Positions 18,534-60,112 are shown, numbered from the stretch's first letter. The stretch is 64,000 bases of DNA from an uncultured bacterium (GCA_964418485.1 CAYQMH010000004.1:2173-66172), one strand, 5' to 3'. Made by a program: numbers and translations. Notes: a model not told the origin generated them from the sequence alone.

Positions 18534-19772
18534 ATGTCAAAAATTTACATTATAGATGTAACGAATCGAGATGGAGTCCAGACTTCGCGGATATGTCTTT
18601 CCAAACTGCAGAAAACCATAATAAATCTTTATCTTTCTCAAGTGGGAGTTTTTCAATCTGAATTTGGTTTCCCTACAACGCACCACGAGACAAATTATCT
18701 CAATGCAAATTTAGAGTTAGCCCGTAGCGGAGTTTTTGGTAAATTGCGTTTAGGAGGCTGGATCCGAGCAATTGAGGAGGATGTAAATTTGACCTTTAAT
18801 TTGTTAACTGATGTAGAGCATTTAAATCTCTCTATTTCTACTTCCGACCAGATGATAGCACATAAATTTAAAGGTAAATTAGACCATACCGCAGTGATAA
18901 AAGAAATGGTTGATGCGGTAAAGCTAGCCAGAGAATTAGGTGCAAAATCCATAGGTGTAAACGCCGAAGATGCATCCCGCTCCAACATGGATTATCTTAT
19001 TTCTTTTGCCGTTGCAGCTAAAGAAGCAGGTGCGGATAGATTTCGTTATTGCGATACCTTAGGCTATGATACACCGTTTACAATATATAATCGGATTCAA
19101 AAAATTGCTGAGAAGATAAAAATACCTATTGAATTGCACTGCCATAATGATCTTGGAATGGTAATTGCCAATTCGTTAGCGGGTGCTATGGCAGCTAATG
19201 ATACGGGGATGGACGCCTATATCAATACCTGTATAAATGGTATGGGGGAACGCGCAGGCAATGCAGATCTGATTTCTGTAATTTTAGCGATTAAACATGG
19301 AAGCGAGATGAAAGATAAGTATATCCTGGATGAAAGAATTGACTTAAAGATAGCATGGAGAATCTGTAAATATGCTTCTTATGCATTTGGCATCCCAATA
19401 CCTATCAATCAACCTGGTATTGGTGCCAATGCTTTTGCTCATGAATCGGGTATTCACGCTGACGGTGCGCTGAAAGACAGACGTAATTACGAACTTTATG
19501 ATTTCGAGGAACTGGGTCGTGGTGAGCCGGAAGTTATTGAGACCGGCAGACAGATTACCGTGGGAGAATACTCCGGAATAAAAGGTTTTAGAAATGTCTA
19601 TGAGAAATTAGAAATAGTTTTTAAAGATGATGCTGAAGCAACCAGAATTCTGGAATTGGCGAGGTTCGCAAATGTGCATAACCAGAAACCGCTGGTGGCG
19701 GAAGAATTAAAATTTATAGCTCAGTATCCTGAAATAGCAAAGAAAATTATGACGATGTTATCGTTGAGTTAA
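18534..19772 (+). CDS. HMGL-like (DRE-TIM metallolyase) protein, divergent 2-isopropylmalate/homocitrate/citramalate synthase family
   Basis: 'DVTNRDGVQ' (cf. DTTLRDGEQ), 'HCHNDLGM', 'GERAGNA', 'HESGIH' metal and substrate motifs. Confidence 0.7.
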   Translation: MSKIYIIDVTNRDGVQTSRICLSKLQKTIINLYLSQVGVFQSEFGFPTTHHETNYLNANLELARSGVFGKLRLGGWIRAIEEDVNLTFNLLTDVEHLNLSISTSDQMIAHKFKGKLDHTAVIKEMVDAVKLARELGAKSIGVNAEDASRSNMDYLISFAVAAKEAGADRFRYCDTLGYDTPFTIYNRIQKIAEKIKIPIELHCHNDLGMVIANSLAGAMAANDTGMDAYINTCINGMGERAGNADLISVILAIKHGSEMKDKYILDERIDLKIAWRICKYASYAFGIPIPINQPGIGANAFAHESGIHADGALKDRRNYELYDFEELGRGEPEVIETGRQITVGEYSGIKGFRNVYEKLEIVFKDDAEATRILELARFANVHNQKPLVAEELKFIAQYPEIAKKIMTMLSLS

Positions 19773-19904
19773 ATCGGCGAGAAAGAAACGTAGTAAATAT
19801 TTGATTTATAAAAGAGGGGTTTTGAGATTTCAGCAATGGGGATAAAGGTTAATAAAGGAGCTTTACTAAAGCACCTTTAAATTACGGGTACTTAGAACAG
19901 AAAA

Positions 19905-20086
19905 AATTCAATATGGCATAAAATGCTTTTAGAGGGCAAATTACCTCTTTCCATAGGGGGTGGGATAGGTCAGTCCCGTCTTTGTATGCTAACCTTGCAG
20001 AAAGCACATATAGGGGAAGTTCAGTGTGGTGTCTGGCCGGATGAGATGGTGCGTGCCTGTGAGGAAAATAATATCTTTTTGCTTTA
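19905..20086 (+). pseudogene. Diverged duplicate of the asnA 3' end (last ~57 codons), no start codon
   Basis: ~88% nt identity to 18160-18340; encodes [57 protein letters not shown]; most differences are synonymous. Confidence 0.85.
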
Positions 20087-20090
20087 AAAT

Positions 20091-22070: not shown

Positions 22071-22215
22071 CTTAGTTGAATGGTTGAATTATTGAATAGT
22101 TGAATAGGAAAAAAAAGAACATCTTTGTGCCCTTTGGGGTTAATTTTTAACCATTAGCATTGGGTTTAGAGTTTTCTGTTACCATTTTCCTATTTTCCCA
22201 TTCTTCAATTTTCCT
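22071..22215. repeat. Short tandem repeats (TTGAATRG xN; ATTTTCC xN)
   Basis: ttagttgaatggttgaattattgaatagttgaatagg ... ccattttcctattttcccattcttcaattttcc. Confidence 0.6.
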
Positions 22216-22230
22216 AATTTGTTTTGGGGT

Positions 22231-33852: not shown

Positions 33853-33990
33853 GCCACAGAGACACAGAGGACACAGAGGAACAACAAAGAACTATAGTTT
33901 GTTAAAACCCATCCCCCCAAAAAATTGGAAACAACAAATCACACAAATAGCACAAATCTTTTTTACTATTTAACTATTTTTTTAATTTAT
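33853..33990. repeat. Composite intergenic repeat (CACAGAG array - CCCATCCCCCC core - CACAAAT array - TTAACTATTT)
   Basis: gccacagagacacagaggacacagagg..gttaaaacccatccccccaaaaaattgg..atcacacaaatagcacaaatc. Confidence 0.85.
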
Positions 33991-34363: not shown

Positions 34364-34375
34364 TACTTAAAAAAT

Positions 34376-34510
34376 TGAACCACAGAGGACACAGAGAGAA
34401 ATAAACACACTGAGAACACAGAGGAAAAGGTGTTGTTTTAAAACCTCCCACCACCCCAAATTATTATTACACAAAGCCGCAAAGAACACAAAGCCCAACA
34501 CCACCCTTCT
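34376..34510. repeat. Composite intergenic repeat (CACAGAG array - CCCACCACCCC - AAATTATT - CACAAAG array)
   Basis: accacagaggacacagagag..gttttaaaacctcccaccaccccaaattattattacacaaagccgcaaagaacacaaagccc. Confidence 0.85.
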
Positions 34511-34621
34511 TTTTTTGTTTTTTTTCTGAAACCGGTTATGTTGACAAAGGTGATATTTGCTACAGGTTCAACATGTGAATATTCTGGTTGTTGGGTTGGG
34601 ATTTAAACAAAACTAATTTTT

Positions 34622-34720
34622 TTCTTTGTGTCTCCGTGTCTTTGTGTGAGATCCATTTGAGGTGGGGTGGAGAAAAACATCATGATTTTGTTTTTTCTTT
34701 TTCTCTGTGCGCTCTGTGGT
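34622..34720. repeat. Composite intergenic repeat, reverse orientation (CTTTGTG array - GGTGGGGTGG - CTCTGTG array)
   Basis: ttctttgtgtctccgtgtctttgtgtgag..gaggtggggtggag..ctctgtgcgctctgtgg. Confidence 0.8.
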
Positions 34721-36763
34721 TTATTCTTTTTCCGTGCTTAATTCTTTCTCCAATATTATCCATTCCTCGGAGAGTTCGGCGATTTGTGTTATAGCATTTT
34801 TGTATTCCTGGTAGTACTCTACCGGGATTAATTCTTTTTTATTTATGTAATAATCCGTATAAGTAATTGTTTTTTCGTCTTTAAGAAGAGTGTTTTTGAA
34901 TTCGATATAAGGATTTGATAAGTTAATTTCTTTTGGAAGATATCGAACTGCGTAGCCTTCGGGAATTTTTATATTTATTTCATTTTCTTCTTTCTCTAAT
35001 TTTCCCCAGTAAACCGGGTATTTTCTCATCCTAGCTCCAACGGAATAAGCAGAATATTCTATGCCCGGTATATGAAAAAGTAAGAAGTTGCCCTGTTTTA
35101 AAGCCAGGCCTTTTGCTCTATATTTTATATCGATTTTGACAACTGGTGCGGCATCTTCTATATGTATAAGAGAAAGATCTGTTATGTTTGAACCCGGTAT
35201 ATTGGCGTTCAGGTAGCTTTCAATCATATTTTTCTTATCTTCTTCTCTCATATATCTGAGGCTTTTAAGACTGGTAGCCATACTTCCGAGAAATATCATC
35301 GTTTCTTCTATTTCTGCCTTGCCTTTTTCGTTAAGTTCTATAGTTCTAGAAATAGAAGTTTTTTCTTTGTCCGGTTCAAATAGAGGTATTTTAATAAATT
35401 CGTTTTTTGTTACGGATAAACCTGTGGTACCCTGATATTCGGGTCTTACGTATCCATACGGGTTGAGCTCTAATGAAGGATCGAGGAAATTACCCCTGAG
35501 TTTTATCAAAGCTCCGTCGAATTGATAAAGAGAAGGGACGTTTTTGGCTAATTCACCTCTTGTTTTTGAGCGAACTAAAACTAATTCAGCAGTATACCCC
35601 TGTGATATTAGGGCAGAGTACAAAAGAGATGTTTTATCAAGAGAATTTGCCAATTTGTTTTCTAAAATTTCTTTTATACTTTTAGGATAACAGTTATATT
35701 TATAAGATGGCACGTCTACAAACCTTATCAAGTCTATAATTTCTTGATATATTTCTTCCGGTTCACTGTTTTGTGGAGTATATTTTCCTTCAAGATGTTT
35801 TTCAAAATTTTGAGATATTTTTTCCCAATTATTTTGGATTCCCGCAGTTATTCTCGGAAAAATGTAAGATTTTGGTGGTGCATTATCTTCGTCTTCATAT
35901 GCTTCCAGCAAGTCTGTTTCCCAATGGAGAATTTTATTTTTCCCTGAAAATTTCAATTCTGGTTCTTCAATTTTCCAATTCTGCCAGGCTATATCGAAGT
36001 ATCTGGGTGTTTCCACTCTGATAATACTTTTTAACGTCGGACCTGAACTTCCCAAGGTAGTTTCTAAAATAAAAGGGAAATCTTCAGATATTTTTCCGGA
36101 AATTGTAACTCCAAAATCCAGGAATTTTCCGGGTTTTACCTCCCGGAGTGCTATTTTTCTTTCATGGGCATTCTCATATGGTGGTATCCTTGAATAAATC
36201 GAAGCGTCCTCAATTGCATTTTCTCTAAGGTAAAGCACTTCACCTTCCCCGGTTATCGTTCTGCCGAAATTTATCTCCAGTTTTTCTTCTTTTGTGCTAT
36301 AATTGAAATTTATGTTGCCTGCGTTTTTTCCTTTTTCAGAGCAAATAGCCCTGATACATCTTGTTGAATATGTGTAACTGGAATCTTTTTCGATTTTTAG
36401 ATGTTTTTTGCAATAAATATCTACATATTTTTTATCTCTGAATTCCGAAAGGTTGGTCTTTAAACTTTGCAATAATATCGGATCTGTTATGTCCTTTGTG
36501 GTTTGCCACAGATAACCTTCTCTTTTTTGTGCGAGGTCGATGCTTCGGACTTCTTTTTGAGGAAAAGTAAGTAGAGTATCCGATGTTACTATGTATATAG
36601 AGTCGGGAGTTATTTTTGTCACTCTGCATTTGTATTCTTCACCTTTTTCCGTGTATATTATATCTTCTTTCCATTTGTTTTCGGTCTTTAGGATTTGTTT
36701 ATTACAGGACAGAAAGAAGATATTCGAAAGGATAATTACTAATAAAAAGATCTTTTTCATCAT
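34721..36763 (-). CDS. Lipoprotein, DUF3857/transglutaminase-like paralog with degenerate active site
   Basis: Lipobox 'FFLSC'; 680 aa; region aligning to the partner's Cys motif reads 'NSLDKTSLLYSALISQGYTAELV' (Cys lost). Confidence 0.55.
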   Translation of the reverse strand: MMKKIFLLVIILSNIFFLSCNKQILKTENKWKEDIIYTEKGEEYKCRVTKITPDSIYIVTSDTLLTFPQKEVRSIDLAQKREGYLWQTTKDITDPILLQSLKTNLSEFRDKKYVDIYCKKHLKIEKDSSYTYSTRCIRAICSEKGKNAGNINFNYSTKEEKLEINFGRTITGEGEVLYLRENAIEDASIYSRIPPYENAHERKIALREVKPGKFLDFGVTISGKISEDFPFILETTLGSSGPTLKSIIRVETPRYFDIAWQNWKIEEPELKFSGKNKILHWETDLLEAYEDEDNAPPKSYIFPRITAGIQNNWEKISQNFEKHLEGKYTPQNSEPEEIYQEIIDLIRFVDVPSYKYNCYPKSIKEILENKLANSLDKTSLLYSALISQGYTAELVLVRSKTRGELAKNVPSLYQFDGALIKLRGNFLDPSLELNPYGYVRPEYQGTTGLSVTKNEFIKIPLFEPDKEKTSISRTIELNEKGKAEIEETMIFLGSMATSLKSLRYMREEDKKNMIESYLNANIPGSNITDLSLIHIEDAAPVVKIDIKYRAKGLALKQGNFLLFHIPGIEYSAYSVGARMRKYPVYWGKLEKEENEINIKIPEGYAVRYLPKEINLSNPYIEFKNTLLKDEKTITYTDYYINKKELIPVEYYQEYKNAITQIAELSEEWIILEKELSTEKE

Positions 36764-40644: not shown

Positions 40645-40825
40645 ACCACAGAGTACACGGGGAAGAAATTAGAAAAATTGAAAAATGGGAAAATAGTAAA
40701 ATGGTAACAAAAAACTTTAAACTAAATACTAATGTTTAAAAATTAACCACAAAGGTCACAAAGATTTTCTTTCTGTTTTTACTATTCAACTATTCAACAA
40801 TTTAACCATTCAACTTAGTCTATTG
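40645..40825. repeat. Intergenic repeat (CACAGAG, CACAAAG units + TTCAACTA tandem)
   Basis: taccacagagtacac..aaccacaaaggtcacaaag..ctattcaactattcaacaatttaaccattcaactt. Confidence 0.75.
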
Positions 40826-42057: not shown

Positions 42058-42230
42058 ACCGCAGAGTCTACAGAGAAGTAAGGACTTCTCAGTATTTAAT
42101 TGTAAATTGCAAGTTGTAAATTGAAAATTGAAAATTTAAAAACAGAAATAGGACGCAGATGAACGCAGATTTTCAGGATTCTTTGTTTTTACTATGTTAA
42201 CTATTTAACAATTCAACTATATTAACTCAA
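42058..42230. repeat. Intergenic repeat incl. TTGTAAATTGCAAG tandem, 23-nt motif copy 2 (42148-42170), TTAACTATTTAAC units
   Basis: accgcagagtctacagag..ttgtaaattgcaagttgtaaattgaaaattgaaaattt..ataggacgcagatgaacgcagat..ctatgttaactatttaacaattcaactatattaact. Confidence 0.8.
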
Positions 42231-42648: not shown

Positions 42649-42867
42649 ATTACCTCCTTTTAGGTTTGAATATTTACATGTTTTCGTAAATGTAATTAAA
42701 TCCGAATACAATCCTGCAGAAAAAGTATTGAGATGTCTAACCGGCAAAACCAGAATGGAGATAAAAAAGTATTAACAATTATATTCCGAACGATCTTGAA
42801 GGTTCCATAACCTACATTTACTGCGTCTATAATACTTGATTTTCAAGAAAAGTCAAGGGGGGGATTC

Positions 42868-43015
42868 ACCACAGAGGTCACAGAGCAAAACAAAACACAC
42901 AGAGAGTACAGAGAAAAAAAGTATTTTTTTGTTTTTAAAACCCACTTCCCCGCACAAAATTATTCTCACGCAAAGTCACAGAGAACACAAAGAAAAAAAT
43001 ATTTGTGTTTTTAAA
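42868..43015. repeat. Composite intergenic repeat (CACAGAG array - CCCACTTCCCC - AAAATTATT - CACAGAG/CACAAAG)
   Basis: caccacagaggtcacagagc..acacagagagtacagag..gtttttaaaacccacttccccgcacaaaattattctcacgcaaagtcacagagaacacaaag. Confidence 0.85.
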
Positions 43016-44477: not shown

Positions 44478-44529
44478 CAAACAAAGCACACAAAGACACA
44501 AAGAAAATAGGACGCAGATGAACGCAGAT
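44478..44529. repeat. CACAAAG array + 23-nt motif copy 3 (44507-44529)
   Basis: caaacaaagcacacaaagacacaaagaaaataggacgcagatgaacgcagat. Confidence 0.85.
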
Positions 44530-44610
44530 TTAAAAGAATTTTTTGTTGTTTTATACCTCTGACTTACTAATTCTTAATACTCAAATTATATAAAATCTTT
44601 TCACATTTCA

Positions 44611-44679
44611 ATGCCTGACCCTGTTGATATGACCCTGTTGATACTGTTGATATTCACAATGCCTGACCCTGTTGATATT
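44611..44679 (+). repeat. Direct repeats of (ATGCCT)GACCCTGTTGATAT (3-4 copies)
   Basis: atgcctgaccctgttgatat gaccctgttgatac tgttgatatt cacaatgcctgaccctgttgatatt. Confidence 0.8.
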
Positions 44680-44709
44680 AAAAATAAGTCCCCTACTTTT
44701 ATTACTTCA

Positions 44710-45378
44710 TCATCTCCTTTGACGACACTTTTTGTGTTCGCGCGCATTTTCTAGAGTAAAAATTAAGTCCTCACCATCACCAATAGAGGGGATATATTGA
44801 TACGTAGTGCGTGATTTCCAGAAGTGTTCCTCTATATCGCCGAGAAGTTTTTGAATCTTTTCCAGAATATTCTCAATATAAGTCCGACTAATACCGGGTA
44901 GAGGGTCAGAGTGATATTGAAGTGTGGTTTCAAGATCTTCATGTGCAAGAAGGCGATTCCGTACCTTTCGTAATGGCTCATAATAGCCCTTAAGTTCCTT
45001 CAATTCTGACTGCCATTTGTCGAATAGAATCGTATCTATGGAGGGTTTTAACTTATCTATTAAATAATCCAAAGATACATTTTTTTTACCACGCGATTCT
45101 TTAGGATCCATGAATCGAGAGATTGCTAGTATTACATCGTGGCGCATAATACGATCCAATAATCCAAAGAATGAAGATGCAGCCCAGTTTAAAAGACCTA
45201 CACGTTCAGGAGAAGTCCCAAATAGGGATTTATAGTTTTGCCAATTCAAGTGTAAGTAAGCAACATTGGTCAAAAGCTCATAAAATAACTCTCCCGTTCC
45301 CTTTGGAAAGAGTGCACGCGCTTTTTCTCGAACCTCTTCCGGAGTCTGATGATTCTTCATTTTCTTATTCGTATTCAT
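44710..45378 (-). CDS. Putative HEPN-domain protein (Abi-like; RNxxxAH motif)
   Basis: 222 aa; 'LRKVRNRLLAHEDL' fits the HEPN Rx4-6H (RN..AH) motif near the C-terminal third; no other family recognised. Confidence 0.4.
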   Translation of the reverse strand: MNTNKKMKNHQTPEEVREKARALFPKGTGELFYELLTNVAYLHLNWQNYKSLFGTSPERVGLLNWAASSFFGLLDRIMRHDVILAISRFMDPKESRGKKNVSLDYLIDKLKPSIDTILFDKWQSELKELKGYYEPLRKVRNRLLAHEDLETTLQYHSDPLPGISRTYIENILEKIQKLLGDIEEHFWKSRTTYQYIPSIGDGEDLIFTLENAREHKKCRQRR

Positions 45379-45519
45379 TTTATAATAAAAATTTAAAAAA
45401 GCTTACTGATAAGTCAATAGACTATGTCCGGGAACGCTGTGACTTGAGAATCGCAAGACGTGAGTCAAAAAAATGTCGTAGCAGTTTAATATAGATTTTA
45501 AACTCAATTCTGAAAACCC

Positions 45520-45549
45520 TTGACATCCTACCCACTTTTGAGGTATATT
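45520..45549 (+). promoter_or_regulatory. Sigma70-like promoter (TTGACA-N18-TATATT) for the Cys-rich/DUF559 nuclease gene
   Basis: cTTGACAtcctacccacttttgaggTATATTgtg in the divergent intergenic region. Confidence 0.4.
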
Positions 45550-45615
45550 GTGAAGGAGGAAGCAACAATTTAAAGTTCAAGAAGTGGTCACTATCGTTCT
45601 TGTTGTTAAGAAAAG

Positions 45616-46614
45616 ATGAAAGATATTGCTTGTAAAGATAACACAATAGCTGAAGAGAAGGGACTGCCCTATCCAATAGTATTATATCCCAAGCATTATG
45701 GAGTATTTATAGGCTTTAAAAGGAATCTTACAGATTCACAAGTTTTTTTCTGCTCATGTTTTAAAGAAGCAATAGTGAATTACATAAAGCATCAACTGGA
45801 AAATCCTAGTATTGGAACATATGGTAATGGTCAAAAAAAATTCTTTCTGGATTATGGTAAGTTTCCTACGAACTTTATTCAGCAGATAAAAAATTATCCA
45901 CAAAACGATAAAATTGTACAAATGTTTCACTTTGAAAACAAACTATGTCACGGATGTAATAATTCTACGCCTTCATATAGATATTGTCATGAAATGTATG
46001 GCTCGGTTTTCAAACAAAATTATGGATGGTACATTAATAAACAAGCCTATGAATGGGGTATTATAGGAAATGAAGTTAATTTTAAATTATGCCCGGATGA
46101 AATCATAGACTTATTAAAAATAGAGCGTAAAGAGTACTTTAATTTGTTCCAAGAACTCATATCAAGTAAAAAGTTAGAAAAAGCGCTTGAATTACAGAGT
46201 AAATTTAATAAACAACAAAGAAAAATCTGGAATGTTATAGAAAATGAAGTTAGAGGAAGATTTGGACATAAGAAAATAGGGGAAGCATGGACTAGTGAAA
46301 CAATCCTTTATTACATAATTGAAAAACTTTATCCGGAAAGAACTATATTTCGTCATTTTCGCCCAGAATTTCTGGAAGGATTAGAAATAGATATATTTAT
46401 AAAAGAATTTAATTTAGGCATCGAATATCAGGGAATACAACATTATAAACCAGTAAAACATTGGGGAGGAGAAGCTGCGTTAAAAAAATTAAAAGAGAGA
46501 GATGATAAAAAGAAAAAAATTTGCGAATCACAAAATATAAATTTGATTTACTTTAAGTACGATGAGGATCTAAGTGAAGAATTTGTTTCGAATAGACTTA
46601 AACAATATATCTAA
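45616..46614 (+). CDS. Cys-rich N-terminal domain fused to a DUF559/Vsr-like PD-(D/E)xK endonuclease domain
   Basis: C-terminal 'FRHFRPEFLEGLEIDIFIKEFNLGIEYQGIQHY...ERDDKKKKICESQNINLIYFKYDE' matches the DUF559 pattern (..vDF....l.IE.DG.qH...D..RD..L...G..vlRf); N-terminal Cys/His clusters 'FFCSCF', 'CHGCNNS', 'YCHEMYG', 'CPDE'. Confidence 0.55.
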   Translation: MKDIACKDNTIAEEKGLPYPIVLYPKHYGVFIGFKRNLTDSQVFFCSCFKEAIVNYIKHQLENPSIGTYGNGQKKFFLDYGKFPTNFIQQIKNYPQNDKIVQMFHFENKLCHGCNNSTPSYRYCHEMYGSVFKQNYGWYINKQAYEWGIIGNEVNFKLCPDEIIDLLKIERKEYFNLFQELISSKKLEKALELQSKFNKQQRKIWNVIENEVRGRFGHKKIGEAWTSETILYYIIEKLYPERTIFRHFRPEFLEGLEIDIFIKEFNLGIEYQGIQHYKPVKHWGGEAALKKLKERDDKKKKICESQNINLIYFKYDEDLSEEFVSNRLKQYI

Positions 46615-46659
46615 CAACATAAAATCCCTGCTAATCGTGTCCTTATCCTGTCTTGTATT

Positions 46660-46822
46660 AGGGTTATGGGATTGGTTTCGAACAACACAAATATATTTTT
46701 TTCTTCGTGCCTTAGTATCTTTGTGTGAGATTGATTTTGGGTCGGGGGTTGGGTATTAACGAAAAAAATCTCTGTGTGCTCTGTGTGTTTGGTTTTTCTC
46801 TGTGCTCTCTGTGGTTCAATCT
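46660..46822. repeat. Composite intergenic repeat, reverse orientation (CTTCGTGCCTTAG - CTTTGTG - GGGTCGGGGGTTGGG - CTCTGTG array)
   Basis: cttcgtgccttagtatctttgtgtgag..ttgggtcgggggttgggtatt..ctctgtgtgctctgtgtg..ttctctgtgctctctgtgg. Confidence 0.85.
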
Positions 46823-46889
46823 TTTTTTCTATGGTTTTTATACCAGGGCTATACTTGACTTTCTTTCGGGTTTGCCTTATTATTTTTAT

Positions 46890-47237
46890 ATGAGAACATT
46901 AGAAGAAATAAAAGTATTAAGGAAAAACGAAAAGGAAGCATTGAGTGAATTAAAATCTCAACTTAAACAGAGAATTCCGGATGCGGAAATTATATTATAT
47001 GGTTCAAAAGCAAGAGGAGATTCTGAAGAGTTGTCGGATATAGATATATTGATTCTTATAGATAAAAAGGTAGATAGAAAACTAAAAGAAAAAATCGTTG
47101 ACATAAGGTATGATATCGAATTGAAATATGATGTTGTCTTTGGACTTGTTATTGAAAATAAGGATTTCTGGGATTCTTCGTTAGCTAACGCAATGCCTTT
47201 CCATAAGAATATAGAGAGAGAAGGTGTTCTTCTTTGA
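46890..47237 (+). CDS. Minimal nucleotidyltransferase (MNT) family protein, TA-antitoxin-like
   Basis: 'ILYGSKARGDSEELSDIDILILID' = GSxARG..(S)D[IV]D NTase signature; start chosen at MRTLEE. Confidence 0.8.
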   Translation: MRTLEEIKVLRKNEKEALSELKSQLKQRIPDAEIILYGSKARGDSEELSDIDILILIDKKVDRKLKEKIVDIRYDIELKYDVVFGLVIENKDFWDSSLANAMPFHKNIEREGVLL

Positions 47238-47641
47238 AAAAAGAGTTTATAGATCTCACAAAATACAGATTAGAGAAAGCGCAGAATACACTATCAGACG
47301 CAAAGAAATATATCGAAGAAGCTACTCCTGAATCAACAGTAAACAGAATTTATTATGCAATGTTTTACGCGGTTAATGCTTTACTCATAGCAAATGGTTT
47401 ATCATCTACAAAACATTCCGGAGTTAGAGCTATTTTCAATAAAGAATTTATAAACGAGGGACTAGTAAAAAAAGAGCTCGGCAAATTTTACTCCGAGATG
47501 TTTGACAATCGGCAGGAAGGCGATTACAGAGATTTTGTAAAATTCGAAAAGGAGGACGTGAAGTTTTGGCTTGAGAAAGCCACTGAGTTTGTAGACGTAG
47601 TCGAAAGTCTGACCAACAAAGCGATTAAAGAAAGTAAGTAA
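47234..47641 (+). CDS. HEPN-domain protein (PF05168-type), partner of the MNT
   Basis: 135 aa; 'VNRIYYAMFYAVNALLIANGL..KHSGV' typical HEPN helical core; overlaps the MNT stop. Confidence 0.75.
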   Translation: MKKEFIDLTKYRLEKAQNTLSDAKKYIEEATPESTVNRIYYAMFYAVNALLIANGLSSTKHSGVRAIFNKEFINEGLVKKELGKFYSEMFDNRQEGDYRDFVKFEKEDVKFWLEKATEFVDVVESLTNKAIKESK

Positions 47642-47709: not shown

Positions 47710-47905
47710 ACTTTGTGTCTTTGTGCCTTAGTGGCAAAATTAGGATTTCGGATTTAGGGGATGGGATTTAGTAAAAAAAGATTTGTGTCATTCGTGTTAT
47801 TTGTTGTTTCTAATCTTGGGAGGTGGGTGTTAAACAAATTATGATTCTTTGTTGTTTCTCTGTGTTCTCTGTGTGTTTAGTTCTTCCTCTGTGGTCTCTG
47901 TGGTT
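47710..47905. repeat. Composite intergenic repeat, reverse orientation; internal segment homologous to 53540-53650
   Basis: ctttgtgtctttgtgccttagtggc..attaggatttcggatttaggggatgggatttag..gatttgtgtcattcgtgttatttgttgtttc..gggaggtgggtg..ttctctgtgttctctgtgtg..ctctgtggtctctgtgg. Confidence 0.85.
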
Positions 47906-52349: not shown

Positions 52350-52580
52350 CGACCCACAACCTTAAAACAACAAAAATATTCTCACACAAAGACACAAAGA
52401 ACACAAAGCCCTTCCACACAACCCTTATATTATGTTTGTTTTAACTTCCCAACCGCCTAACTTTCTAACGTCCTAACTAAAATAATTACCCCAGAGAACA
52501 CAGAGGAAAAAAACTCACAGAGACCACAGAGTTTTTTGTTGTTTTTTTTAACTGCTAACTACTCTCTATTTACTATTTAA
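52350..52580. repeat. Composite intergenic repeat (CACAAAG array - CCCTTCCACACAACCC - CTAACT units - CACAGAG array - TTAACTGCTAACT)
   Basis: ctcacacaaagacacaaagaacacaaagcccttccacacaaccc..ctaactttctaacgtcctaact..ccccagagaacacagagg..ctcacagagaccacagag..ttaactgctaactac. Confidence 0.85.
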
Positions 52581-52581
52581 A

Positions 52582-53373
52582 TTATCGTCCTATCTCTTTC
52601 TGAACCAGATGTTTATTGTCCCGCACCCAGTTATAATACTCTGTTCTTTTAAGTTTGGAAGCTGCATCCTTATCCAAAACAACATTTACATAACTATGCA
52701 GCTGTAAAGCGCTGGCCGTTATTTGACTTGTTACGGGTCCTTCGATGAATTTGGCACAGACGTCAGCTTTCTTTTTTCCGTTTGCTATAAGAAGTGTTTT
52801 TTTAGCTTCCAAGATAGTTCCTATCCCTATAGTAATAGCAAAACGAGGTACATCTTTCATGTTATCGAAGAAACGAGCATTATCTTCTATTGTTTGTTTA
52901 TATAATGCCTTTATTCGCGTGCGGCTGGCAAAGGAAGATCCCGGTTCATTAAAAGCAATATGTCCATCAGCTCCAATACCAAGTATTTGAAGATCTATAC
53001 CGCCTACTTTTTTAATTTGTACTTCATACCAGGTACAGAATTGTTCAGGGTCTTTTATATTTCCCTGTGGTATAAAAACATTTTCCGGGTTTATATTAAT
53101 ATGTTTAAACAGGTTTTCCCACATAAAATAGTTATAACTGTTTTTGTGTAACGGAGCCAGCCCCAGGTATTCATCTAAATTGAAAGATTTTACTTTAGAG
53201 AAATCCAATCCTTCTTCTTTATGTATTCTTACGAGTTCTTTGTAGGTGCCAATAGGCGTATCTCCAGTTGCCAGGCCTAATACAAGATCATGTTTTTTTC
53301 TGATTTCTTCAGCAATTATTTGAGCAGATACTCTGCTCATTTCATCGTAATTAGAAGCAATAGTTATTTCCAT
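52582..53373 (-). CDS. nagB: Glucosamine-6-phosphate deaminase
   Basis: 'LGLATGDTP', 'ILGIGADGHIAFNEPGSS'. Confidence 0.85.
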   Translation of the reverse strand: MEITIASNYDEMSRVSAQIIAEEIRKKHDLVLGLATGDTPIGTYKELVRIHKEEGLDFSKVKSFNLDEYLGLAPLHKNSYNYFMWENLFKHININPENVFIPQGNIKDPEQFCTWYEVQIKKVGGIDLQILGIGADGHIAFNEPGSSFASRTRIKALYKQTIEDNARFFDNMKDVPRFAITIGIGTILEAKKTLLIANGKKKADVCAKFIEGPVTSQITASALQLHSYVNVVLDKDAASKLKRTEYYNWVRDNKHLVQKEIGR

Positions 53374-53460
53374 AATATTACCTACCCCCTTTTATTTTAT
53401 TTTGAACTTTTGGTTTTTAAAAATAATTATTCTTTTCGGTTTGTCAACAGCAGTATAATA

Positions 53461-53690
53461 GTTAGTAGAAAGTAGAGAGTAGTGAGTAGTAAAAAAACAA
53501 AAAATCTTGTGACAATCTGTGTAATCTTGTGGCAATTTTTAGGGATTAGGATTTTGGGTTTGGGATTTAGAAAAAACAAACAAGAAATATTTGTGTGATT
53601 TGTGCTATTCGTTGTTCCTTGTTTTTATTTTTGAAATTTGATTTGTAGTTTTGTATTTTGATATTTGATTTTTACATTTTTTTGAAGCCT
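53461..53690. repeat. Intergenic repeat (GTAGWGA tandem; GGATTAGGATTTTGGGTTTGGGATTTAG; TTGTGTGATTTGTGCTATTCGTTGTTCC)
   Basis: gttagtagaaagtagagagtagtgagtag..ttagggattaggattttgggtttgggatttag..atttgtgtgatttgtgctattcgttgttcc..tttgatttgtagttttgtattttgatatttgattttt. Confidence 0.8.
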
Positions 53691-53725
53691 TGCGGATGTT
53701 GAGAAATAATCTTAATTTATAATCT

Positions 53726-55477
53726 ATGGTTGAGATTTCGCTAAAAGACATACCGGAACTTTCCGGAGTTTATCATTTCCGTGATGAGGAGAAAATACTT
53801 TATATAGGTAAAGCAAAGAATTTGAAAAAAAGAATCAATAGTTATTTTACCCGTAAAAATTCCATAAAAGAAAGTAAAATATTATATGAAGCCAAATTTT
53901 TAGATTATACGGCTACATCTAATGAATTGGAAGCTCTTATATTGGAAGAAAATGAAATAAAAGAACACCAGCCAAAATATAACGTGAGATTAAAGGATGA
54001 TAAAAGATATCCATATATTAAGATAACTATAAAGGATGAATATCCGAGGGTCTTTTATACCCGAAAAATCGAAGATGACGGGTCTCTTTTTTTTGGTCCC
54101 TTTGCAGATGTAAAGGCAGTTAAAAGAGCGCTTAAAACGCTTATAAGCGTTTTTCCGGTGAGGACATGTAAAGGAAAAAATTTACCCTATAAAGTTTGCC
54201 TTCAGTATCATATTAATAGATGTTTGGGACCATGTATAGGAAAAATAGAAAAAGAAGAATATAGAGAGATGATCGATGAAATAGTCGATTTTCTCAAGGG
54301 TAAAACAAAGAAGCTTGAAAAAATTATTAATAATAAAATGAGAGAATCAGCCGCGAAATTGAATTTTGAGATGGCTGCTGTTTATAGAAACCAGATAATG
54401 AGTCTCAGGGATCTCGCAAGGAAGCAGAGAATAGTGTTAGAGGATAAAAAATCCAGAGATGTGATTGGAATCAGCGTCAAATCCGGGAAGGCTTGTGTTT
54501 TCGTTTTTCAGATAAGAGAAGGAAAGATGGTTAATACTGAGAGATACATACTTCGTTCGAGTGAAGAGGTACCGGTGAAAGAATATCTCAAGAGGTTTCT
54601 CCCCTGGAAATATCTGAATATATCCTATATTCCTAAAGAGATTCTAATTCCGGTAGAAATAGAAGATAAAAATTTGCTGGAAAATCTTTTTTTGTGTAGA
54701 ATTAAAGTACCAAGGAGAGGGGATTTGAAAGGACTAAAGGAAATGGCGATTAAAAATGCGAAACTTGAATTGGAAAGGGAACTTGCTCGTCCGGTGACCG
54801 GCTTAAATGATTCTTTAGGTGAGCTTCAGAAACTTCTTATGCTCGAGAGTCTTCCGGTGAGAATAGAAGGATTCGATATTTCTAATATTAGCGGTTCCGA
54901 TTCGGTGGGTTCTTGCGTTGTGTTTGTAAATGGTTTTCCCGCAAAGGAAAAATACAGACGTTTTAAAATCAAAAACGTTGAAGGAATTAACGATCCTGCC
55001 ATGATAGGTGAAATTGTCGGTAGAAGGATTAAAAAATTGATAGAAGAGAAAGATTTACCCGATTTGATTTTGATCGACGGAGGAAAAACACAGTTAAATG
55101 GAGCTTTGAAGGCTATGGGTAAAGTTGCACGCTTAAAAATACCTGTTATAGCGTTGGCTAAGAGAGCAGAGGAAGTACATTTGCCGAGCGGAGAAATTAT
55201 TTCTTTGCCTTTAAGCTCTAAGGCTCTGAAACTCTTAATGAGAATACGCAATGAGGCTCACTCATTTGCTCTTAGTTATCATAAAAAACTCAGAAGAAAA
55301 AAACTTTCTCTTTCGGAATTGGATGAGATTGAAGGTATAGGCTATAAGCGTAAAATTGCTTTGATTCAGCATTTTGGTTCAAAAGACAGGATACTTACGG
55401 CATCTAAAGAAGAAATTAGAGAAGTTACGGGAGTTGGAGATAAATTGGCTGATATTGTTTATAATTCTCTTCATTAA
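53726..55477 (+). CDS. uvrC: Excinuclease ABC subunit C
   Basis: GIY-YIG 'GVYHFRDEEKILYIGKAKNLKKRINSYF'; UvrBC-interaction, RNase H-like and C-terminal HhH domains. Confidence 0.9.
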   Translation: MVEISLKDIPELSGVYHFRDEEKILYIGKAKNLKKRINSYFTRKNSIKESKILYEAKFLDYTATSNELEALILEENEIKEHQPKYNVRLKDDKRYPYIKITIKDEYPRVFYTRKIEDDGSLFFGPFADVKAVKRALKTLISVFPVRTCKGKNLPYKVCLQYHINRCLGPCIGKIEKEEYREMIDEIVDFLKGKTKKLEKIINNKMRESAAKLNFEMAAVYRNQIMSLRDLARKQRIVLEDKKSRDVIGISVKSGKACVFVFQIREGKMVNTERYILRSSEEVPVKEYLKRFLPWKYLNISYIPKEILIPVEIEDKNLLENLFLCRIKVPRRGDLKGLKEMAIKNAKLELERELARPVTGLNDSLGELQKLLMLESLPVRIEGFDISNISGSDSVGSCVVFVNGFPAKEKYRRFKIKNVEGINDPAMIGEIVGRRIKKLIEEKDLPDLILIDGGKTQLNGALKAMGKVARLKIPVIALAKRAEEVHLPSGEIISLPLSSKALKLLMRIRNEAHSFALSYHKKLRRKKLSLSELDEIEGIGYKRKIALIQHFGSKDRILTASKEEIREVTGVGDKLADIVYNSLH

Positions 55478-55494
55478 CGGGATTATTCTTTGAT

Positions 55495-58299
55495 TTGATA
55501 TTATTACTGCTTTCCATATCATCAGAAGTATTAATTATAGAGTCACCGGATACGTCCGAAATTGCTCTCGGTTATCCCTTTGTCATTAAAAACTCTGATA
55601 GTTTGTGGTGTGGAGAAGAGCTTTTGTCCCGCGATTCGTCATATATAATAGATTACAAAAGAGGTGTTTTAAGAATTAAGAAGGATTGTTCTCTACCTCT
55701 GAGATTTAAGTTCTTACATCTGGATTTTATGTTGAATGAAAGCTACTCAAGGTGGGCTCCGGATACTTCCAGGTCTTTACCTGCTGGGATTGTAGAAGAG
55801 TCTAGTTGGCAGGATGGCGATAAACTTATAATAAGTGGGAATAAAGGTTTATTTGTAGATGTAAGAGCGAACAGGACTGATATAAGCCAGAGTTTATGGA
55901 TGAGGATAGGGGGTAGCGCCGGGCAGTTCGATGTTTCCGGAGTTCTTTCCGATGAAAATATTCCTAAAGGTAACGTGGTTTCGCAGAATTTGCGGGAAAT
56001 AGATGAGATTTTTATCGAAGCAGTTTCCGATGATATATCTATCAGAATGGGGGATATTGTAACTACTGAGGAGGAAGTAGATAAAAAATTGCTTGGGCTT
56101 TCTTTCGCCTGGAAAGACTTATCCGGAGTAGCGGGGATTTCTAAGGCTAAATATGGGAAAATTACGTTTAAAACAGTCGAAGACAAACAGGGTCCCTATA
56201 AAATTAATCCGGAAGAAGGAATAAGTGGTGTTTCAATAGTAAGAGGTTCAGAGCAAGTTTGGCTTAATGGCAAGCTGCTGGCGAGGGGAATAGAAAAAGA
56301 TTATGTAATTAATTACCTGGAAAACACTCTCACTTTTAATTCCTCTGTTTTTCTTGATAATGAGTCGGTGGTTCTTGTTCTTTTTCAATATAGTATTTAC
56401 GGAGAAAGTAATATGTTCTATGAAACCGCGTTTGAGAGTGATGATTATTCTTTTTCTTTCCGTCGCGAAGAAGATTTCTCGGAAAAAGATTTAATCGAAT
56501 CCTATCCCGATTCAGGTTTTGGATACAGATATAATTCTACATATGTTGGAGAGGGAAATGGTGATTACCAGCTGTTGGATTCCATTTTTGTTTATCAGGG
56601 TTACGAAAAAGGCTCTTACGAAGTGTATTTTGAGTGGATCGGAGAGGGAAACGGTGAATATGAGTATGTGGATTCATTACATTACTTTCTCTGGACAGGA
56701 GATGGTCCGTTTTCGCCTAAAAGGAAAGTTCCTTTAGGGGAAGAAGATAACTTGTTTTCATTAGGCTTAAACAAGAGTTTAAAAAATTTTGATATATCGG
56801 GGAGATTAAAAGCAAGAAGAATTAGAATTCCAGTAGGAGGAGAGGGAAAAGATGGTCTAAATGCCAGTTTTAAGTCCAGGTATAAGCCATACGATTTTTT
56901 AAGTTTCTTTTTTGATTATTCCGGGAAAACTTCGAATTTTGTTGTTAGGGAATGGGAAGGAGAGAAAGATTTATTGAAAACCTGGGAAATGGCTAATTAC
57001 CCTTTAGATTTTTTGGAAAGTGGTATAGAATTTGTGCCCAATTCGAGAATGGAATGTTCCTATGTTTACGGGAAAGCGGATACTCTCCGTAAGGATAAAA
57101 TAAATTTTAAAATCTCTCCTTTATTTTTTTATTGGGATAATATTAGAGGGAAGCGGCTGGATTTAAAAGGAGGATTTTTATTTTCCGGCTATGAGATTTC
57201 ATATAGAGATTTAAGTAGAGGTGAAGATTACAGAAGAGAGTTTTTTGCCGGTAGCTCATATTTAGGTCTTTTATATGGATTAGAGGGAGGAAGTCGAGGT
57301 GATACTGCAAGGGTATATGTCGGAAAGACAAATCTGAAATATAAAAATCTCTCTTTAGTTGCGTCGCATATTTACAGGATGAATTTAATTTCAGGGCAGT
57401 CAGAAAGGATTACCAATGGGAGCTTTGATATGAATTTAAACTTAAATTCTTTTTATTTGAGAAGTAAGTTTGATGTTTCTAAGAAAAGAGCGAGTGTCTG
57501 GGAAAGATATTATCAGAAGGTGAACTCCGGGGGAGGAGATTATTCCTTTGATTCGACAGCAAATGTTTATTATGAGAATCCTTATGGAGATTATGTGGAG
57601 AGAGTTGTATATACAGGGGAGGAGAGGGATTCGAGAGAATATTCGGCAAATATTTCCGTCCGCTCCGAGCGAATTGTTTTGCTGAACGGGTATATAAATT
57701 CGACTTATAGTCCGAATTTGATGTCTCGAAATGATGGTTCGATAAGTCTTAAATTTCCGGAAAAGAGTAAAAACAGAATCTTTTTCAGAAATAGTTTTAA
57801 ATACAGTAGCGGAGGGACTTTTTGGAGGGGGGCAGACCGTAATTATACAAAGGTTGATTTTGGCTGGGAGAATAGTGCTAAAGGATATAAAGAACTTGGG
57901 GGTACAAGGGAGTGGAGCAGTGAAGAGGACAAATGGGGAGGTTTTTTAAGTTTTTGGAATGATGAAGGAATTGAAATAAAACTCGAGGAAATCTTAACCA
58001 CGGGAGAAGATACGCTTATTTCTTCGATTTTGGAACTGGGTTATAGACTTTTTGGAGAAAGGAAAAGCGGTTTATTTCAGGTAACTCTGGGTTACAACTA
58101 TTATCCGGATGGTAGTGTTAATTCCTATAGGATGAACGATCTTTATCCTCCCGGATTTTTTTATGATTTTACCTCTTCTGTAACATTCGATTTAACCGAG
58201 ATGGTTCATCTGGTAACAAATGCGACTATTCATAAACTGAGTGGCGGGGAAATTTATTATACAGGTAGAATAGGAATCACTGCCGATTTTTCTCCGTAA
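55495..58299 (+). CDS. Large hypothetical protein (934 aa), G/Y/S/N/D/E-rich with internal GEGNG(D/E)Y repeats; probably secreted/outer membrane
   Basis: Short hydrophobic N-terminus; tandem 'YVGEGNGDYQ'/'WIGEGNGEYEY'; beta-rich composition; no family recognised. Confidence 0.45.
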   Translation: MILLLLSISSEVLIIESPDTSEIALGYPFVIKNSDSLWCGEELLSRDSSYIIDYKRGVLRIKKDCSLPLRFKFLHLDFMLNESYSRWAPDTSRSLPAGIVEESSWQDGDKLIISGNKGLFVDVRANRTDISQSLWMRIGGSAGQFDVSGVLSDENIPKGNVVSQNLREIDEIFIEAVSDDISIRMGDIVTTEEEVDKKLLGLSFAWKDLSGVAGISKAKYGKITFKTVEDKQGPYKINPEEGISGVSIVRGSEQVWLNGKLLARGIEKDYVINYLENTLTFNSSVFLDNESVVLVLFQYSIYGESNMFYETAFESDDYSFSFRREEDFSEKDLIESYPDSGFGYRYNSTYVGEGNGDYQLLDSIFVYQGYEKGSYEVYFEWIGEGNGEYEYVDSLHYFLWTGDGPFSPKRKVPLGEEDNLFSLGLNKSLKNFDISGRLKARRIRIPVGGEGKDGLNASFKSRYKPYDFLSFFFDYSGKTSNFVVREWEGEKDLLKTWEMANYPLDFLESGIEFVPNSRMECSYVYGKADTLRKDKINFKISPLFFYWDNIRGKRLDLKGGFLFSGYEISYRDLSRGEDYRREFFAGSSYLGLLYGLEGGSRGDTARVYVGKTNLKYKNLSLVASHIYRMNLISGQSERITNGSFDMNLNLNSFYLRSKFDVSKKRASVWERYYQKVNSGGGDYSFDSTANVYYENPYGDYVERVVYTGEERDSREYSANISVRSERIVLLNGYINSTYSPNLMSRNDGSISLKFPEKSKNRIFFRNSFKYSSGGTFWRGADRNYTKVDFGWENSAKGYKELGGTREWSSEEDKWGGFLSFWNDEGIEIKLEEILTTGEDTLISSILELGYRLFGERKSGLFQVTLGYNYYPDGSVNSYRMNDLYPPGFFYDFTSSVTFDLTEMVHLVTNATIHKLSGGEIYYTGRIGITADFSP

Positions 58300-58340
58300 C
58301 TGCCCCTTGACTTATAGCTTTACTTTTATAGAATAAATTT

Positions 58341-59492
58341 ATGAATATTATTTTGTTTGAGGACAAAAAAGTAATTAATTTCTATCCTATTTCCAGGTTG
58401 CGTACGATCGATGAGATTAGAACAGGAATGTGGACACAGAAGGAGAGAGCCTTTTTAAAATTTAAAACAAAGCCATTAAGTTATTCTTTAAGAGAATATT
58501 ACGGCGATGAATTTAAAGTGAAGGGAGATGCGCTTTTTCTGAATTCGAGATTAAAAGATTTCGATTTTTTTAATAATTTGGAAAATAATACATGTGTTAT
58601 CAATAAAGATGGGGAAGTTCTCGGTTATAAAAGTAATAAGATTATTGAAGGGGATAAGTTCGATGGATTTAAAGTGGTCGTAGAAGAAATTCCGATGTAT
58701 AATTTTATATGGGATGTTATAGCCGATTTGCCCGAAAGATTAACGGCGGATTTAGTCGGTGATCCGTCTTTAGGCAAAATATCCAGTCCGGTTGGTGACT
58801 TTGTTCATATCAGAAACAAAAAGAATGTTTATATAGGTAATAACGTTGAGCTTGGTGAGGCCGTTGTCCTCGATGCCCGGCATGCTCCTGTTTGGATTGA
58901 TGACGGTGCGGTTGTAGAAAGCCATTGTTGCATTATCGGGCCTGCTTATATAGGCAAAAAGTCAAAAGTGAAGCCGGCTAGTCTTTTGGATATTGTTTCA
59001 ATTGGTGATGTTGTTAAAATTTCCGGCGAGATTGAGGGAACTATTTTTCAAGGTTATTCAAATAAACAACATTTAGGGTTCCTTGGGCATGCTTTTGTCG
59101 CCGAGTGGGTCAATTTGGGTGCCGGGACAACTAATTCTGATTTAAAAAATAATTATAGTAAAGTAAGCGTAATTTTAGAGGGAAAACGTTACGATACTGG
59201 TATGCAATTTCTTGGTACTATAATTGGAGATCACTCAAAGGCTGCAATTAATACTACTTTTAATACTGGTACAATTGTCGAACCATTTTGTAATATATTT
59301 GGAAGGGGATACCCTCCTAAATATGTACCTCCTTTTAGTTGGTGGGGAGACGACATCGAAGAATATAAGCTGGATAAGGCTATTGAGACAGCGACTATGG
59401 TTATGAAAAGAAGGGGTGTAGATTTGAGTGAGCATTATAGAAAAAAAATTGAGCAGCTTTTCATAGAAGCTAAAGACATCAGAAAAAAATAA
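58341..59492 (+). CDS. Putative sugar nucleotidyltransferase-like protein with left-handed beta-helix (hexapeptide) repeats (TIGR03991-like)
   Basis: N-terminus 'MNIILFEDKKVINFYPISRLRTIDEIRTG' resembles FCB-group 'putative sugar nucleotidyl transferase'; hexapeptide repeats IGNNVELGEAVV.. in the C-terminal half. Confidence 0.5.
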   Translation: MNIILFEDKKVINFYPISRLRTIDEIRTGMWTQKERAFLKFKTKPLSYSLREYYGDEFKVKGDALFLNSRLKDFDFFNNLENNTCVINKDGEVLGYKSNKIIEGDKFDGFKVVVEEIPMYNFIWDVIADLPERLTADLVGDPSLGKISSPVGDFVHIRNKKNVYIGNNVELGEAVVLDARHAPVWIDDGAVVESHCCIIGPAYIGKKSKVKPASLLDIVSIGDVVKISGEIEGTIFQGYSNKQHLGFLGHAFVAEWVNLGAGTTNSDLKNNYSKVSVILEGKRYDTGMQFLGTIIGDHSKAAINTTFNTGTIVEPFCNIFGRGYPPKYVPPFSWWGDDIEEYKLDKAIETATMVMKRRGVDLSEHYRKKIEQLFIEAKDIRKK

Positions 59493-59560
59493 ATTAATAT
59501 TAGGTTTTTCCCTAATTCCACTATTGACTTTTTCTCGTTTCTTCTTATAATAGTTATTAA

Positions 59561-60112
59561 ATGGGAAAAATGGAAAAATTTCATAAAATCGTTACAGTGG
59601 AGTTGCTTTCGACGATTGATCATAAATTGAGAGGTGTGCAGCAATTTATTGTAGCGCTCCGCGGACTAATCGAAGAAGATGTTCTTAATGATTTGGCCGA
59701 AGAAGTTGGTGAGTTGCAGGCTCTTTATGAACCTTTTCTAAAACTCCGAGATTTAGATCTGCAAGAAGTTGATTTGGGAAAGTTTTTAGGGGATAATTAT
59801 AATATGCAATCAGGGGCTTCCTGTATTGTCAAGGTGGATAAAGAAAAGCTCGATTTTGTTCTTGATTTTTTTAATGAATTTTCAGAAGGAAATTATGAAT
59901 TATCTGTTAAGCCTGCTGGCAAGGGTTGTATTGTTAGTTTGGTTTCTCCTTCGTTTTCCGAATTATCTATTGATTATTTTGACGAACTTTCTGGTGAGGT
60001 TGATCGCCTTCCGTTTTTTGCTATTAAGAAAGTACTTGGAAGAATGGGTGCCGAATTTTCTATTGAAGGAGAAGAAGTATCTATTGAATTTTTGCGTCCA
60101 GGTGAAATATAA
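59561..60112 (+). CDS. Hypothetical protein (183 aa)
   Basis: Acidic, no family recognised; the preceding region has no repeat element. Confidence 0.35.
   Translation: MGKMEKFHKIVTVELLSTIDHKLRGVQQFIVALRGLIEEDVLNDLAEEVGELQALYEPFLKLRDLDLQEVDLGKFLGDNYNMQSGASCIVKVDKEKLDFVLDFFNEFSEGNYELSVKPAGKGCIVSLVSPSFSELSIDYFDELSGEVDRLPFFAIKKVLGRMGAEFSIEGEEVSIEFLRPGEI

Follow-up and report, generated by a model that had tools for sequence, protein, structure and literature searches.

A predicted AbiU2-family HEPN protein and a Vsr/EDxHD-like nuclease encoded in a laterally mobile two-gene cassette of an uncultured bacterium

Two divergently transcribed genes are considered here, which lie on a stretch of 64,000 nucleotides from an uncultured bacterium (GCA_964418485.1 CAYQMH010000004.1:2173-66172). 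The whole stretch is called the window, and positions are counted from its first letter. One gene encodes a 222-residue protein, classified below as a member of the AbiU2 family of HEPN proteins. The other encodes a 332-residue protein with a Cys/His-rich N-terminal part and a C-terminal domain that resembles the Vsr and EDxHD nucleases. Together they form a block of about 2.09 kb, which recurs between other neighbours in related genomes. An earlier note on the same DNA, made without database searches, had described the first gene as a standalone HEPN-type RNase gene of the abortive-infection (Abi) or toxin-antitoxin kind. Its observation is partly confirmed by what follows, and its core interpretation is supported.

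The first gene is an open reading frame of 222 codons, which runs from an ATG to a stop codon on the minus strand, and in which the RNxxxAH motif that had been pointed out, in the peptide LRKVRNRLLAHEDL, is present as claimed. Its start codon is uncertain: an alternative ATG at 45358-45360, which encodes M7, coincides in the alignment with the first residue of almost every homologue, and some members of the protein's cluster are annotated as 216 residues long. Residues 30-193 correspond to positions 6-179 of the 193-position Pfam profile HEPN_AbiU2 (PF18734), with a score of 54.7 bits (E = 1.2e-14) against a gathering cutoff of 26.8, a match which, judged from the sequence, is far above chance. 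AbiU2 was the first HEPN family that the earlier note had named for a profile search, and a large part of the remainder of the protein, which it had held to match no family, thereby finds its place. A word-indexed search gave 38 homologues with 49-94% identity, and PF18734 occurs in all of them (38/38). More distant relatives, at 28-35% identity, come from Cloacimonadota, Chloroflexota, Rhodanobacter, Pseudomonas, Hydrogenophaga, Gemmatimonadota and Porticoccaceae. When 1.84 billion representative sequences were searched exhaustively with an AbiU2 profile, 4,871 relatives were found at E <= 0.001 and 3,111 at E <= 1e-10. The family therefore comprises at least 4,871 cluster representatives, nearly all with a single domain. 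Relatives are found on plasmids and also near TIR, restriction-modification and transposase genes. The 222-residue protein is an ordinary member of the known AbiU2 family and no new kind of protein, i.e., one more member of a very large, known and biochemically uncharacterised family.

HEPN active sites follow the rule Rx4-6H, in which the arginine is followed by a polar N, D or H, and in the all-alpha, four-helix up-down core of these proteins the motif sits where core helix 3 ends and the next loop begins (PMC3710099). The peptide LRKVRNRLLAHEDL covers residues 136-149, and its segment R140-N-R-L-L-A-H146 has the form Rx5H with an asparagine after the arginine, the codons for R140 and H146 being those at 44959-44961 and 44941-44943. 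All 38 aligned homologues have R140, H146 and D148, and at least 90% of them keep each of N141, R142 and A145. The same holds at greater distance. Among the 149 top representatives from the exhaustive search, which have a median identity of 32% to the query and a median length of 221 residues, R140 is found in 149/149, H146 in 148/149, an N, H or D after the arginine in 146/149, and D148 in 140/149. All intact copies at 28-35% identity keep the pattern R-[NH]-[RK]-x-[IL]-A-H-x-D-L. HEPN proteins also have a second conserved acidic site upstream, typically Ex3[KR] in helix 2. The helix 70-90 carries D81 (D in 105/149, otherwise N, E or S) and R88 (137/149), which have the spacing Dx6R rather than Ex3[KR] and may be the counterpart of this site.

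The AlphaFold2 model of the protein, calculated from the 38-sequence alignment, is wholly helical, with a mean predicted local distance difference test (pLDDT) score of 79 and a predicted template-modelling score of 0.72. Its long helices span residues 29-53, 70-90, 116-144 (with a kink near 133) and 165-187. R140 lies near the end of the helical segment 134-144 and H146 in the loop that follows, which is the position described for HEPN motifs. Of the two outcomes that would have refuted the earlier note, no predicted all-alpha fold and a motif not kept in homologues, neither is observed. Fold searches with the model gave no significant match, and the assignment to HEPN is therefore based on the Pfam match, the conserved motif, the predicted helices and the way the family is classified in the literature. 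Neither sequence nor profile searches against the chains of the PDB matched the protein, and among the PHROGs there is no model for it.

Some relatives depart from the common form of the family. In a Rhodanobacteraceae metagenome-assembled genome (L028, 3494-4058) and in Rhodocyclus tenuis (L029, 5001-5571) the AbiU2 copies are frameshifted or split, or interrupted by stop codons, and appear to be decaying pseudogenes. The best-scoring representative (P0159, a metagenomic protein of 438 residues) continues after a complete domain with a C-terminal extension of about 210 residues, which includes a hydrophobic segment that probably spans the membrane. Such a fusion is rare for a family that otherwise has one domain. 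At another locus (L010; 5138-5875, 1486-2343 region) the AbiU2 gene lies directly downstream of a Y1-transposase-like gene, which matches Y1_Tnp weakly, a TIR_2 / Sel1 protein is encoded within a few kb, and from this context a defence or mobilome islet is suggested.

The 332-residue protein has at least 403 homologues, all of them named 'hypothetical' and none with a Pfam domain. Identity among them remains at about 50% across Candidate Phyla Radiation (CPR) bacteria, Nanoarchaeota and Bacteroidota. Relatives occur on plasmids of Haladaptatus, Bacillus thuringiensis, Vibrio and Acinetobacter, in phages, and in viral contigs (326 in IMG/VR). In an alignment of 45 homologues the invariant residues fall into two groups, C46, C48, C111, H112, C114 and C124 in the N-terminal part and E223, E228, D259, E270, Q272, H276 and D296 in the C-terminal part. 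The AlphaFold2 model has a pLDDT of 91. With Foldseek its C-terminal domain matches Vsr (1vsr/1cw0) at a probability of 0.98, with TM scores of 0.52-0.56 and root-mean-square deviations of 2.9-3.9 A, at E values of only 0.25-0.4. BLASTP (3e-17, 47% identity) relates the protein to one of Klebsiella phage Muenster annotated 'homing endonuclease EDxHD', with D259, H276 and D296 aligned. The depositors of the phage protein cite an HHpred match to 3R3P with 97% probability, and the EDxHD group is the Vsr-like I-Bth0305I family, of which free-standing members are known (PMC3239194). The 332-residue protein also matches PHROG families that carry homing or HNH endonuclease annotations. The protein combines a Vsr-like fold with conserved Asp, His and Asp residues and an upstream Glu, and there is no direct match between its sequence and that of 3R3P or Vsr. 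PADLOC and NCBIfam contain no model for it.

The neighbour had been described in the earlier note as a Cys-rich protein with a DUF559 nuclease domain. The Cys-rich part of this description stands, and so does the kind of nuclease fold, which is Vsr-like. Membership in DUF559 (PF04480) is rejected, since there is no Pfam match at E <= 1 for the protein or at E <= 0.1 for 45 members of its family. DUF559 is itself in the Vsr-like fold class.

A full-length relative of the 332-residue protein, with 39% identity, is encoded in Clostridium phage phiCT19406A (L032, 3992-5080), immediately upstream of the small and large terminase genes. Phage endonucleases of the HNH or homing type are often found at this place.

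The two genes are found together in two further chromosomal contexts. A homologue of the AbiU2 protein with 87% identity (L001-L003, L018) and one with 94% identity (L012, L013) both have the divergent 332-residue gene beside them. The outer neighbours differ in each case: they are DUF2784 and IlvD in the first context, UvrC and a NagB-like gene in the second, and an unknown 426-residue gene and an MNT-HEPN pair in the window. Nucleotide similarity between the copies ends sharply, at 44685 and at 46769-46773 by blastn, and L012 and L001 share about 80 bp more with each other on the AbiU2 side.

The window also preserves the site which carries the cassette in L012. The flanks of the L012 cassette match the window at 53688-60059 (79.9% identity) and 52556-53448 (77.8%), and between these segments the window has a spacer of 239 bp where L012 has 2,535 bp. 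Since both flanks align around it, this spacer is the empty site for the L012 insertion. From the flanking genes it also follows how recent the exchange is. For the same pair of genomes the synonymous divergence (dS) is 1.06 for uvrC, 0.85 for a 934-residue neighbour and 2.7 for the NagB-like gene, compared with 0.13 for the AbiU2 gene and 0.30 for the nuclease gene. The cassette must therefore have been exchanged long after the host genomes diverged. Together, the three chromosomal sites, the sharp edges and the low divergence indicate that the 2.09-kb block has recently moved laterally among related genomes. A comparison of the three cassette copies shows purifying selection on both genes, with dN/dS of 0.20-0.28 for the AbiU2 gene, which is therefore kept functional, and 0.09-0.13 for the nuclease gene.

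The three copies share no third conserved open reading frame, and the cassette contains no Rfam family and no gene for a recombinase or transposase. Its GC content of 0.30-0.37 equals that of its surroundings and gives no sign of foreign origin. The insertion junctions could not be reconstructed, because the intergenic DNA of empty and occupied sites is not alignable, so that neither base-precise junctions nor target-site duplications are recoverable from the comparison. A metagenome scan for further contexts of the cassette returned the known contig alone, and exact look-ups of the window's AbiU2 protein, with either start codon, gave no match.

The genes are linked within the closest clade alone, whose AbiU2 proteins have an identity of at least 87%. 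At 69% identity or less, AbiU2 homologues adjoin an unrelated 217-residue gene, small open reading frames or a Y1-transposase-like gene, and no AbiU2 gene is found beside the nuclease homologues at 56-73% identity, on plasmids or in 80 viral loci. Because neither gene keeps the other outside the closest clade, each is taken to be a solo gene of the mobilome and their pairing to be young. The word 'standalone' in the earlier note accordingly fits the family at large, which has no conserved partner. It does not fit the closest clade: there the AbiU2 gene is locked with the 332-residue gene in a moving block, and is for this reason better described as part of a mobile cassette than as a strictly standalone gene.

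The divergent region shared by the two genes is exactly 237 bp long, as had been stated, and is 93% conserved between the three cassette copies. It contains a near-consensus sigma-70-like promoter, TTGACA-18-TATATT, on the plus strand at 45520-45549, which faces the nuclease gene and the hexamers of which are invariant in all three copies. No convincing candidate for a conserved promoter of the AbiU2 gene was found in the 237 bp. An imperfect palindrome had been proposed in the same region, with a spacer of 11 nt between its arms. The arms, GTGACTTGAG (45439-45448) and CGTGAGTCA (45459-45467), are in fact separated by 10 nt, and 6/9 arm positions pair. The region has five inverted repeats of equal quality, where dinucleotide shuffles give 4.5 +/- 2.9, and no other part of it is less conserved between the copies of the cassette. 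L012 and L001 have GTGAGT as the left arm, so that the two arms form a direct repeat instead of an inverted one, and the right arm of L001 is degenerate as well. An operator at this place is rejected, because the palindrome occurs at chance frequency and is not kept in the other two copies.

Table 1. Positions of the cassette, its genes and the elements around it (window coordinates)
Feature	Position	Strand	Basis or remark
Direct-repeat cluster, TGACCCTGTTGATA x4	44609..44685		Abuts left cassette boundary
Two-gene cassette, ~2.09 kb	44685..46770		blastn limits; 91-93% nucleotide identity with two other contexts
AbiU2-family HEPN protein gene (predicted)	44710..45378	-	Open reading frame and Pfam PF18734; 222 aa from M1, 216 aa from M7
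HEPN Rx5H motif codons, R140-N-R-L-L-A-H146-E-D148, predicted catalytic	44935..44961	-	Sequence and conservation
Divergent intergenic region, 237 bp	45379..45615		Between AbiU2 and 332-aa genes
Imperfect palindrome, rejected as functional element	45439..45467		Chance level, unconserved
332-aa protein gene, Cys/His-rich N-terminus and Vsr/EDxHD-like C-terminus	45616..46614	+	Model, Foldseek, BLASTP
REP-like dispersed repeat copy	46681..46826		Spans right cassette boundary; matches 42865-43012, 34606-34731
MNT-HEPN pair (predicted)	46890-47641	+	Directly right of cassette; Pfam matches
Empty site, NagB-like gene/uvrC spacer	53449..53687		Cassette-bearing in relative L012

The AbiU2 family was defined as a HEPN family by Anantharaman et al. 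in 2013 (PMC3710099), and the present protein resembles its lactococcal namesake (AbiUii) in the match to PF18734 over nearly the whole domain, in the motif R-[NHD]-x4-H and in the single-domain architecture. It differs in being too distant from lactococcal AbiU2 for direct detection by BLAST in the plasmid collection. An association with mobile and defence contexts is shared as well, and the locus as a whole recalls AbiU1/AbiU2 in having a nuclease gene beside the gene of an AbiU2 HEPN protein. The partner here is Vsr/EDxHD-like, 332 residues long and divergently transcribed, while AbiU1 is FokI-like. The Sel1-repeat and restriction-modification operon settings reported for other members of the AbiU2 family are not present. 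Another parallel is HNPBCG_15845 of Vibrio mimicus, likewise a small AbiU2-domain protein on a compact mobile cassette, in that case an integron cassette, and reported to act alone against T4 and T7 (bioRxiv 10.64898/2026.03.17.712381). Unlike it, the present cassette has two genes, and lies between housekeeping genes with REP-like repeats at its borders. No attC or integrase was noticed in it, though no search was aimed at them. With the MNT-HEPN systems (MntA/HepT, type VII) the AbiU2 protein shares the HEPN superfamily, the Rx4-6H motif and the predicted role of RNase effector. It belongs to PF18734 and not to PF05168, has no profile similarity to the latter, and lacks a nucleotidyltransferase partner or operon. 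The 332-residue protein, in turn, resembles Vsr and EDxHD (I-Bth0305I, PDB 3R3P; PMC3239194) in its C-terminal fold and in the aligned Asp, His and Asp. Its relatives are frequent in phages, and the EDxHD family also has free-standing members. It differs from EDxHD in having an N-terminal Cys/His-rich module instead of NUMOD or helix-turn-helix repeats, and in lying in no intron or intein.

With a probability of roughly two in three, we take the AbiU2 protein to be a latent, metal-independent HEPN endoribonuclease that acts alone as an abortive-infection effector, by analogy with HEPN enzymes that have been characterised. R140, N141 and H146 would make up the active site, which would probably be completed across the interface of a homodimer. 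The protein would normally be held inactive. Upon phage infection it would cleave RNA, the cleavage would shut down translation, and the infection would be aborted. The mode of action would be that of an abortive-infection defence and not that of a classical toxin-antitoxin pair, and the gene moves jointly with that of the divergent Vsr/EDxHD-like DNA endonuclease as a putative defence cassette. What we infer in this proposal is the RNase activity, the dimerisation, the activation by phage and the defence role of the protein, as well as the way in which the cassette moves. A role in defence is supported by the place of AbiU2 among the Abi HEPN families in the literature, and an AbiU2-domain integron cassette with a single gene is reported to protect against T4 and T7 (bioRxiv 10.64898/2026.03.17.712381).

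Several observations weigh against the proposal that the AbiU2 protein acts alone as an RNase. In the AlphaFold2 model the pLDDT is only 50-65 at about residues 141-160, i.e., beside the motif itself. The AbiU2 profile, when compared by hhalign with the neighbouring classical HEPN protein, shows no profile similarity to it (probability 0.4%), and neither PADLOC nor NCBIfam has a model that matches the protein. The searched literature contains no demonstration of RNase activity for any AbiU2-family protein. In Lactococcus, furthermore, the HEPN partner AbiU2 is not the resistance determinant and lowered resistance (PMC13064643), and lactococcal abiU2 is not toxic in E. coli (PMC3985639).

The lactococcal observations lead to another reading, where the Vsr/EDxHD-like nuclease is the anti-phage effector, modulated or restrained by the AbiU2 HEPN protein, and where the two genes make up one functional unit. 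In the AbiU prototype, too, the AbiU2 HEPN protein has a predicted restriction-endonuclease-like protein as its partner, and there AbiU1 alone gives resistance, which AbiU2 lowers (PMC13064643). That the genes have a conserved divergent control region in common, move strictly together in three contexts and are both under purifying selection agrees with such a unit. The confinement of the linkage to the closest clade does not, nor do the different neighbours of the AbiU2 homologues at 69% identity or less, the nuclease homologues that lack AbiU2 alongside, and the failure of PADLOC models to match the 332-residue protein, and we consider the two-component system unlikely. The toxin-antitoxin pair, in which AbiU2 would be a constitutively toxic RNase and the antitoxin would be the 332-residue protein, a hidden small open reading frame or RNA, or the adjacent MNT, is a highly improbable arrangement. 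Many HEPN proteins are indeed toxins of such pairs, and an MNT-HEPN pair adjoins the cassette. Toxin-antitoxin modules are, on the other hand, recognised by a conserved antitoxin gene that shares the toxin's operon. The AbiU2 gene has no co-directional partner, and its divergent neighbour does not stay with it elsewhere. A hidden antitoxin is rejected, as the three cassette copies have no third conserved open reading frame and no Rfam RNA, and so is the adjacent MNT, whose gene overlaps that of its own HEPN protein in an operon and is missing from the other cassette contexts. The lack of a conserved antitoxin candidate, the tie between the MNT and its own HEPN gene and the non-toxicity of lactococcal abiU2 in E. 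coli (PMC3985639) together make the arrangement unlikely. The earlier reading, of a HEPN-type RNase of the sort known from Abi and toxin-antitoxin systems, stands at its core, while the label 'toxin' is at most putative.

The nuclease may also be seen as the driving part of a selfish element. In this case the 332-residue protein would be a free-standing homing endonuclease, which spreads by cutting DNA and by recombinational repair of the cut, and the AbiU2 gene would be co-converted cargo. The match to a phage protein annotated as an EDxHD homing endonuclease (E = 3e-17), with D259, H276 and D296 aligned, points in this direction, and so do the PHROG homing-endonuclease matches, the 326 relatives in viral contigs, the relative next to a phage terminase gene and the identity of about 50% across CPR bacteria, Nanoarchaeota and Bacteroidota. 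It would also account for three occupied sites although the cassette has neither recombinase nor transposase. Three unrelated sites fit badly with site-specific homing, however, unless the target is the dispersed REP-like repeat, and neither a common target sequence nor a clean junction was recovered. There is no intron or intein context, and even without the nuclease the block could be moved, by recombination of the REP-like repeats at its two ends. We hold this explanation to be quite unlikely. The cassette might mobilise itself, the nuclease cutting at or near REP-like repeats so that the AbiU2 gene is copied along into new intergenic sites of related genomes, or the pair might be a previously unrecognised AbiU-like system of a nuclease and a HEPN modulator, and this pair of conjectures we regard as quite unlikely. 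Self-mobilisation, if true, would mean that a selfish nuclease of the homing type is coupled with a gene for abortive infection.

What the locus adds to the AbiU2 family is the laterally mobile cassette that pairs an AbiU2 gene with that of a Vsr/EDxHD-like nuclease, which is modestly novel. With the block at three chromosomal sites and an empty site kept in the window it amounts to a natural experiment, and to a clean case of a predicted defence cassette that moves without a recombinase between related uncultured genomes. Because the cassette recalls the lactococcal locus with its nuclease-like and AbiU2 genes, the pair is also a compact construct for two open questions. One is whether AbiU2 proteins act alone as RNases or modulate a partner nuclease. 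The other is whether nucleases of the Vsr/EDxHD type mobilise neighbouring defence genes.

Both edges of the cassette are occupied by repeats. Related REP-like repeats are found in about 12 intergenic regions of the window, at 11580-11632, 17224-17257, 22071-22223, 33862-33968, 34369-34521, 34606-34731, 40663-40818, 42146-42190, 42865-43012, 44505-44550, 46681-46826 and 47769-47874. Copies thus lie on both sides of the cassette, and related copies flank the L012 cassette too. The repeats are rich in CACAAAG/CTCTGTG units and yield spurious open reading frames such as '...LCVLCVF...'. At the left edge there is in addition a cluster of direct repeats, with two copies of CAATGCCTGACCCTGTTGATAT and four of TGACCCTGTTGATA, which stands where the other two cassette copies share their additional 80 bp or so. 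The TGACCCTGTTGATA motif occurs neither elsewhere in the window nor in any of the loci compared, and the cluster may represent a scar of the junction or a group of binding sites.

Directly to the right of the cassette lies the MNT-HEPN pair, which is placed outside it because the other two contexts are without the pair. It consists of a nucleotidyltransferase gene (Pfam NTP_transf_2, 1.4e-12), the start of which is probably M56 of the listed open reading frame, at 46890, and of a PF05168 HEPN gene at 47234-47641 (5.9e-22), with which it overlaps by 4 bp. The sequence TTGACT-17-TATTAT precedes the nucleotidyltransferase gene at 46855-46883, and by its Pfam matches the pair is predicted to be a type VII toxin-antitoxin-like module. 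Elsewhere in the window, self-BLAST shows two 271-bp segments that match each other, 18070-18340 and 19817-20087, which lie near the ends of the open reading frames 17285-18340 and 18534-19772.
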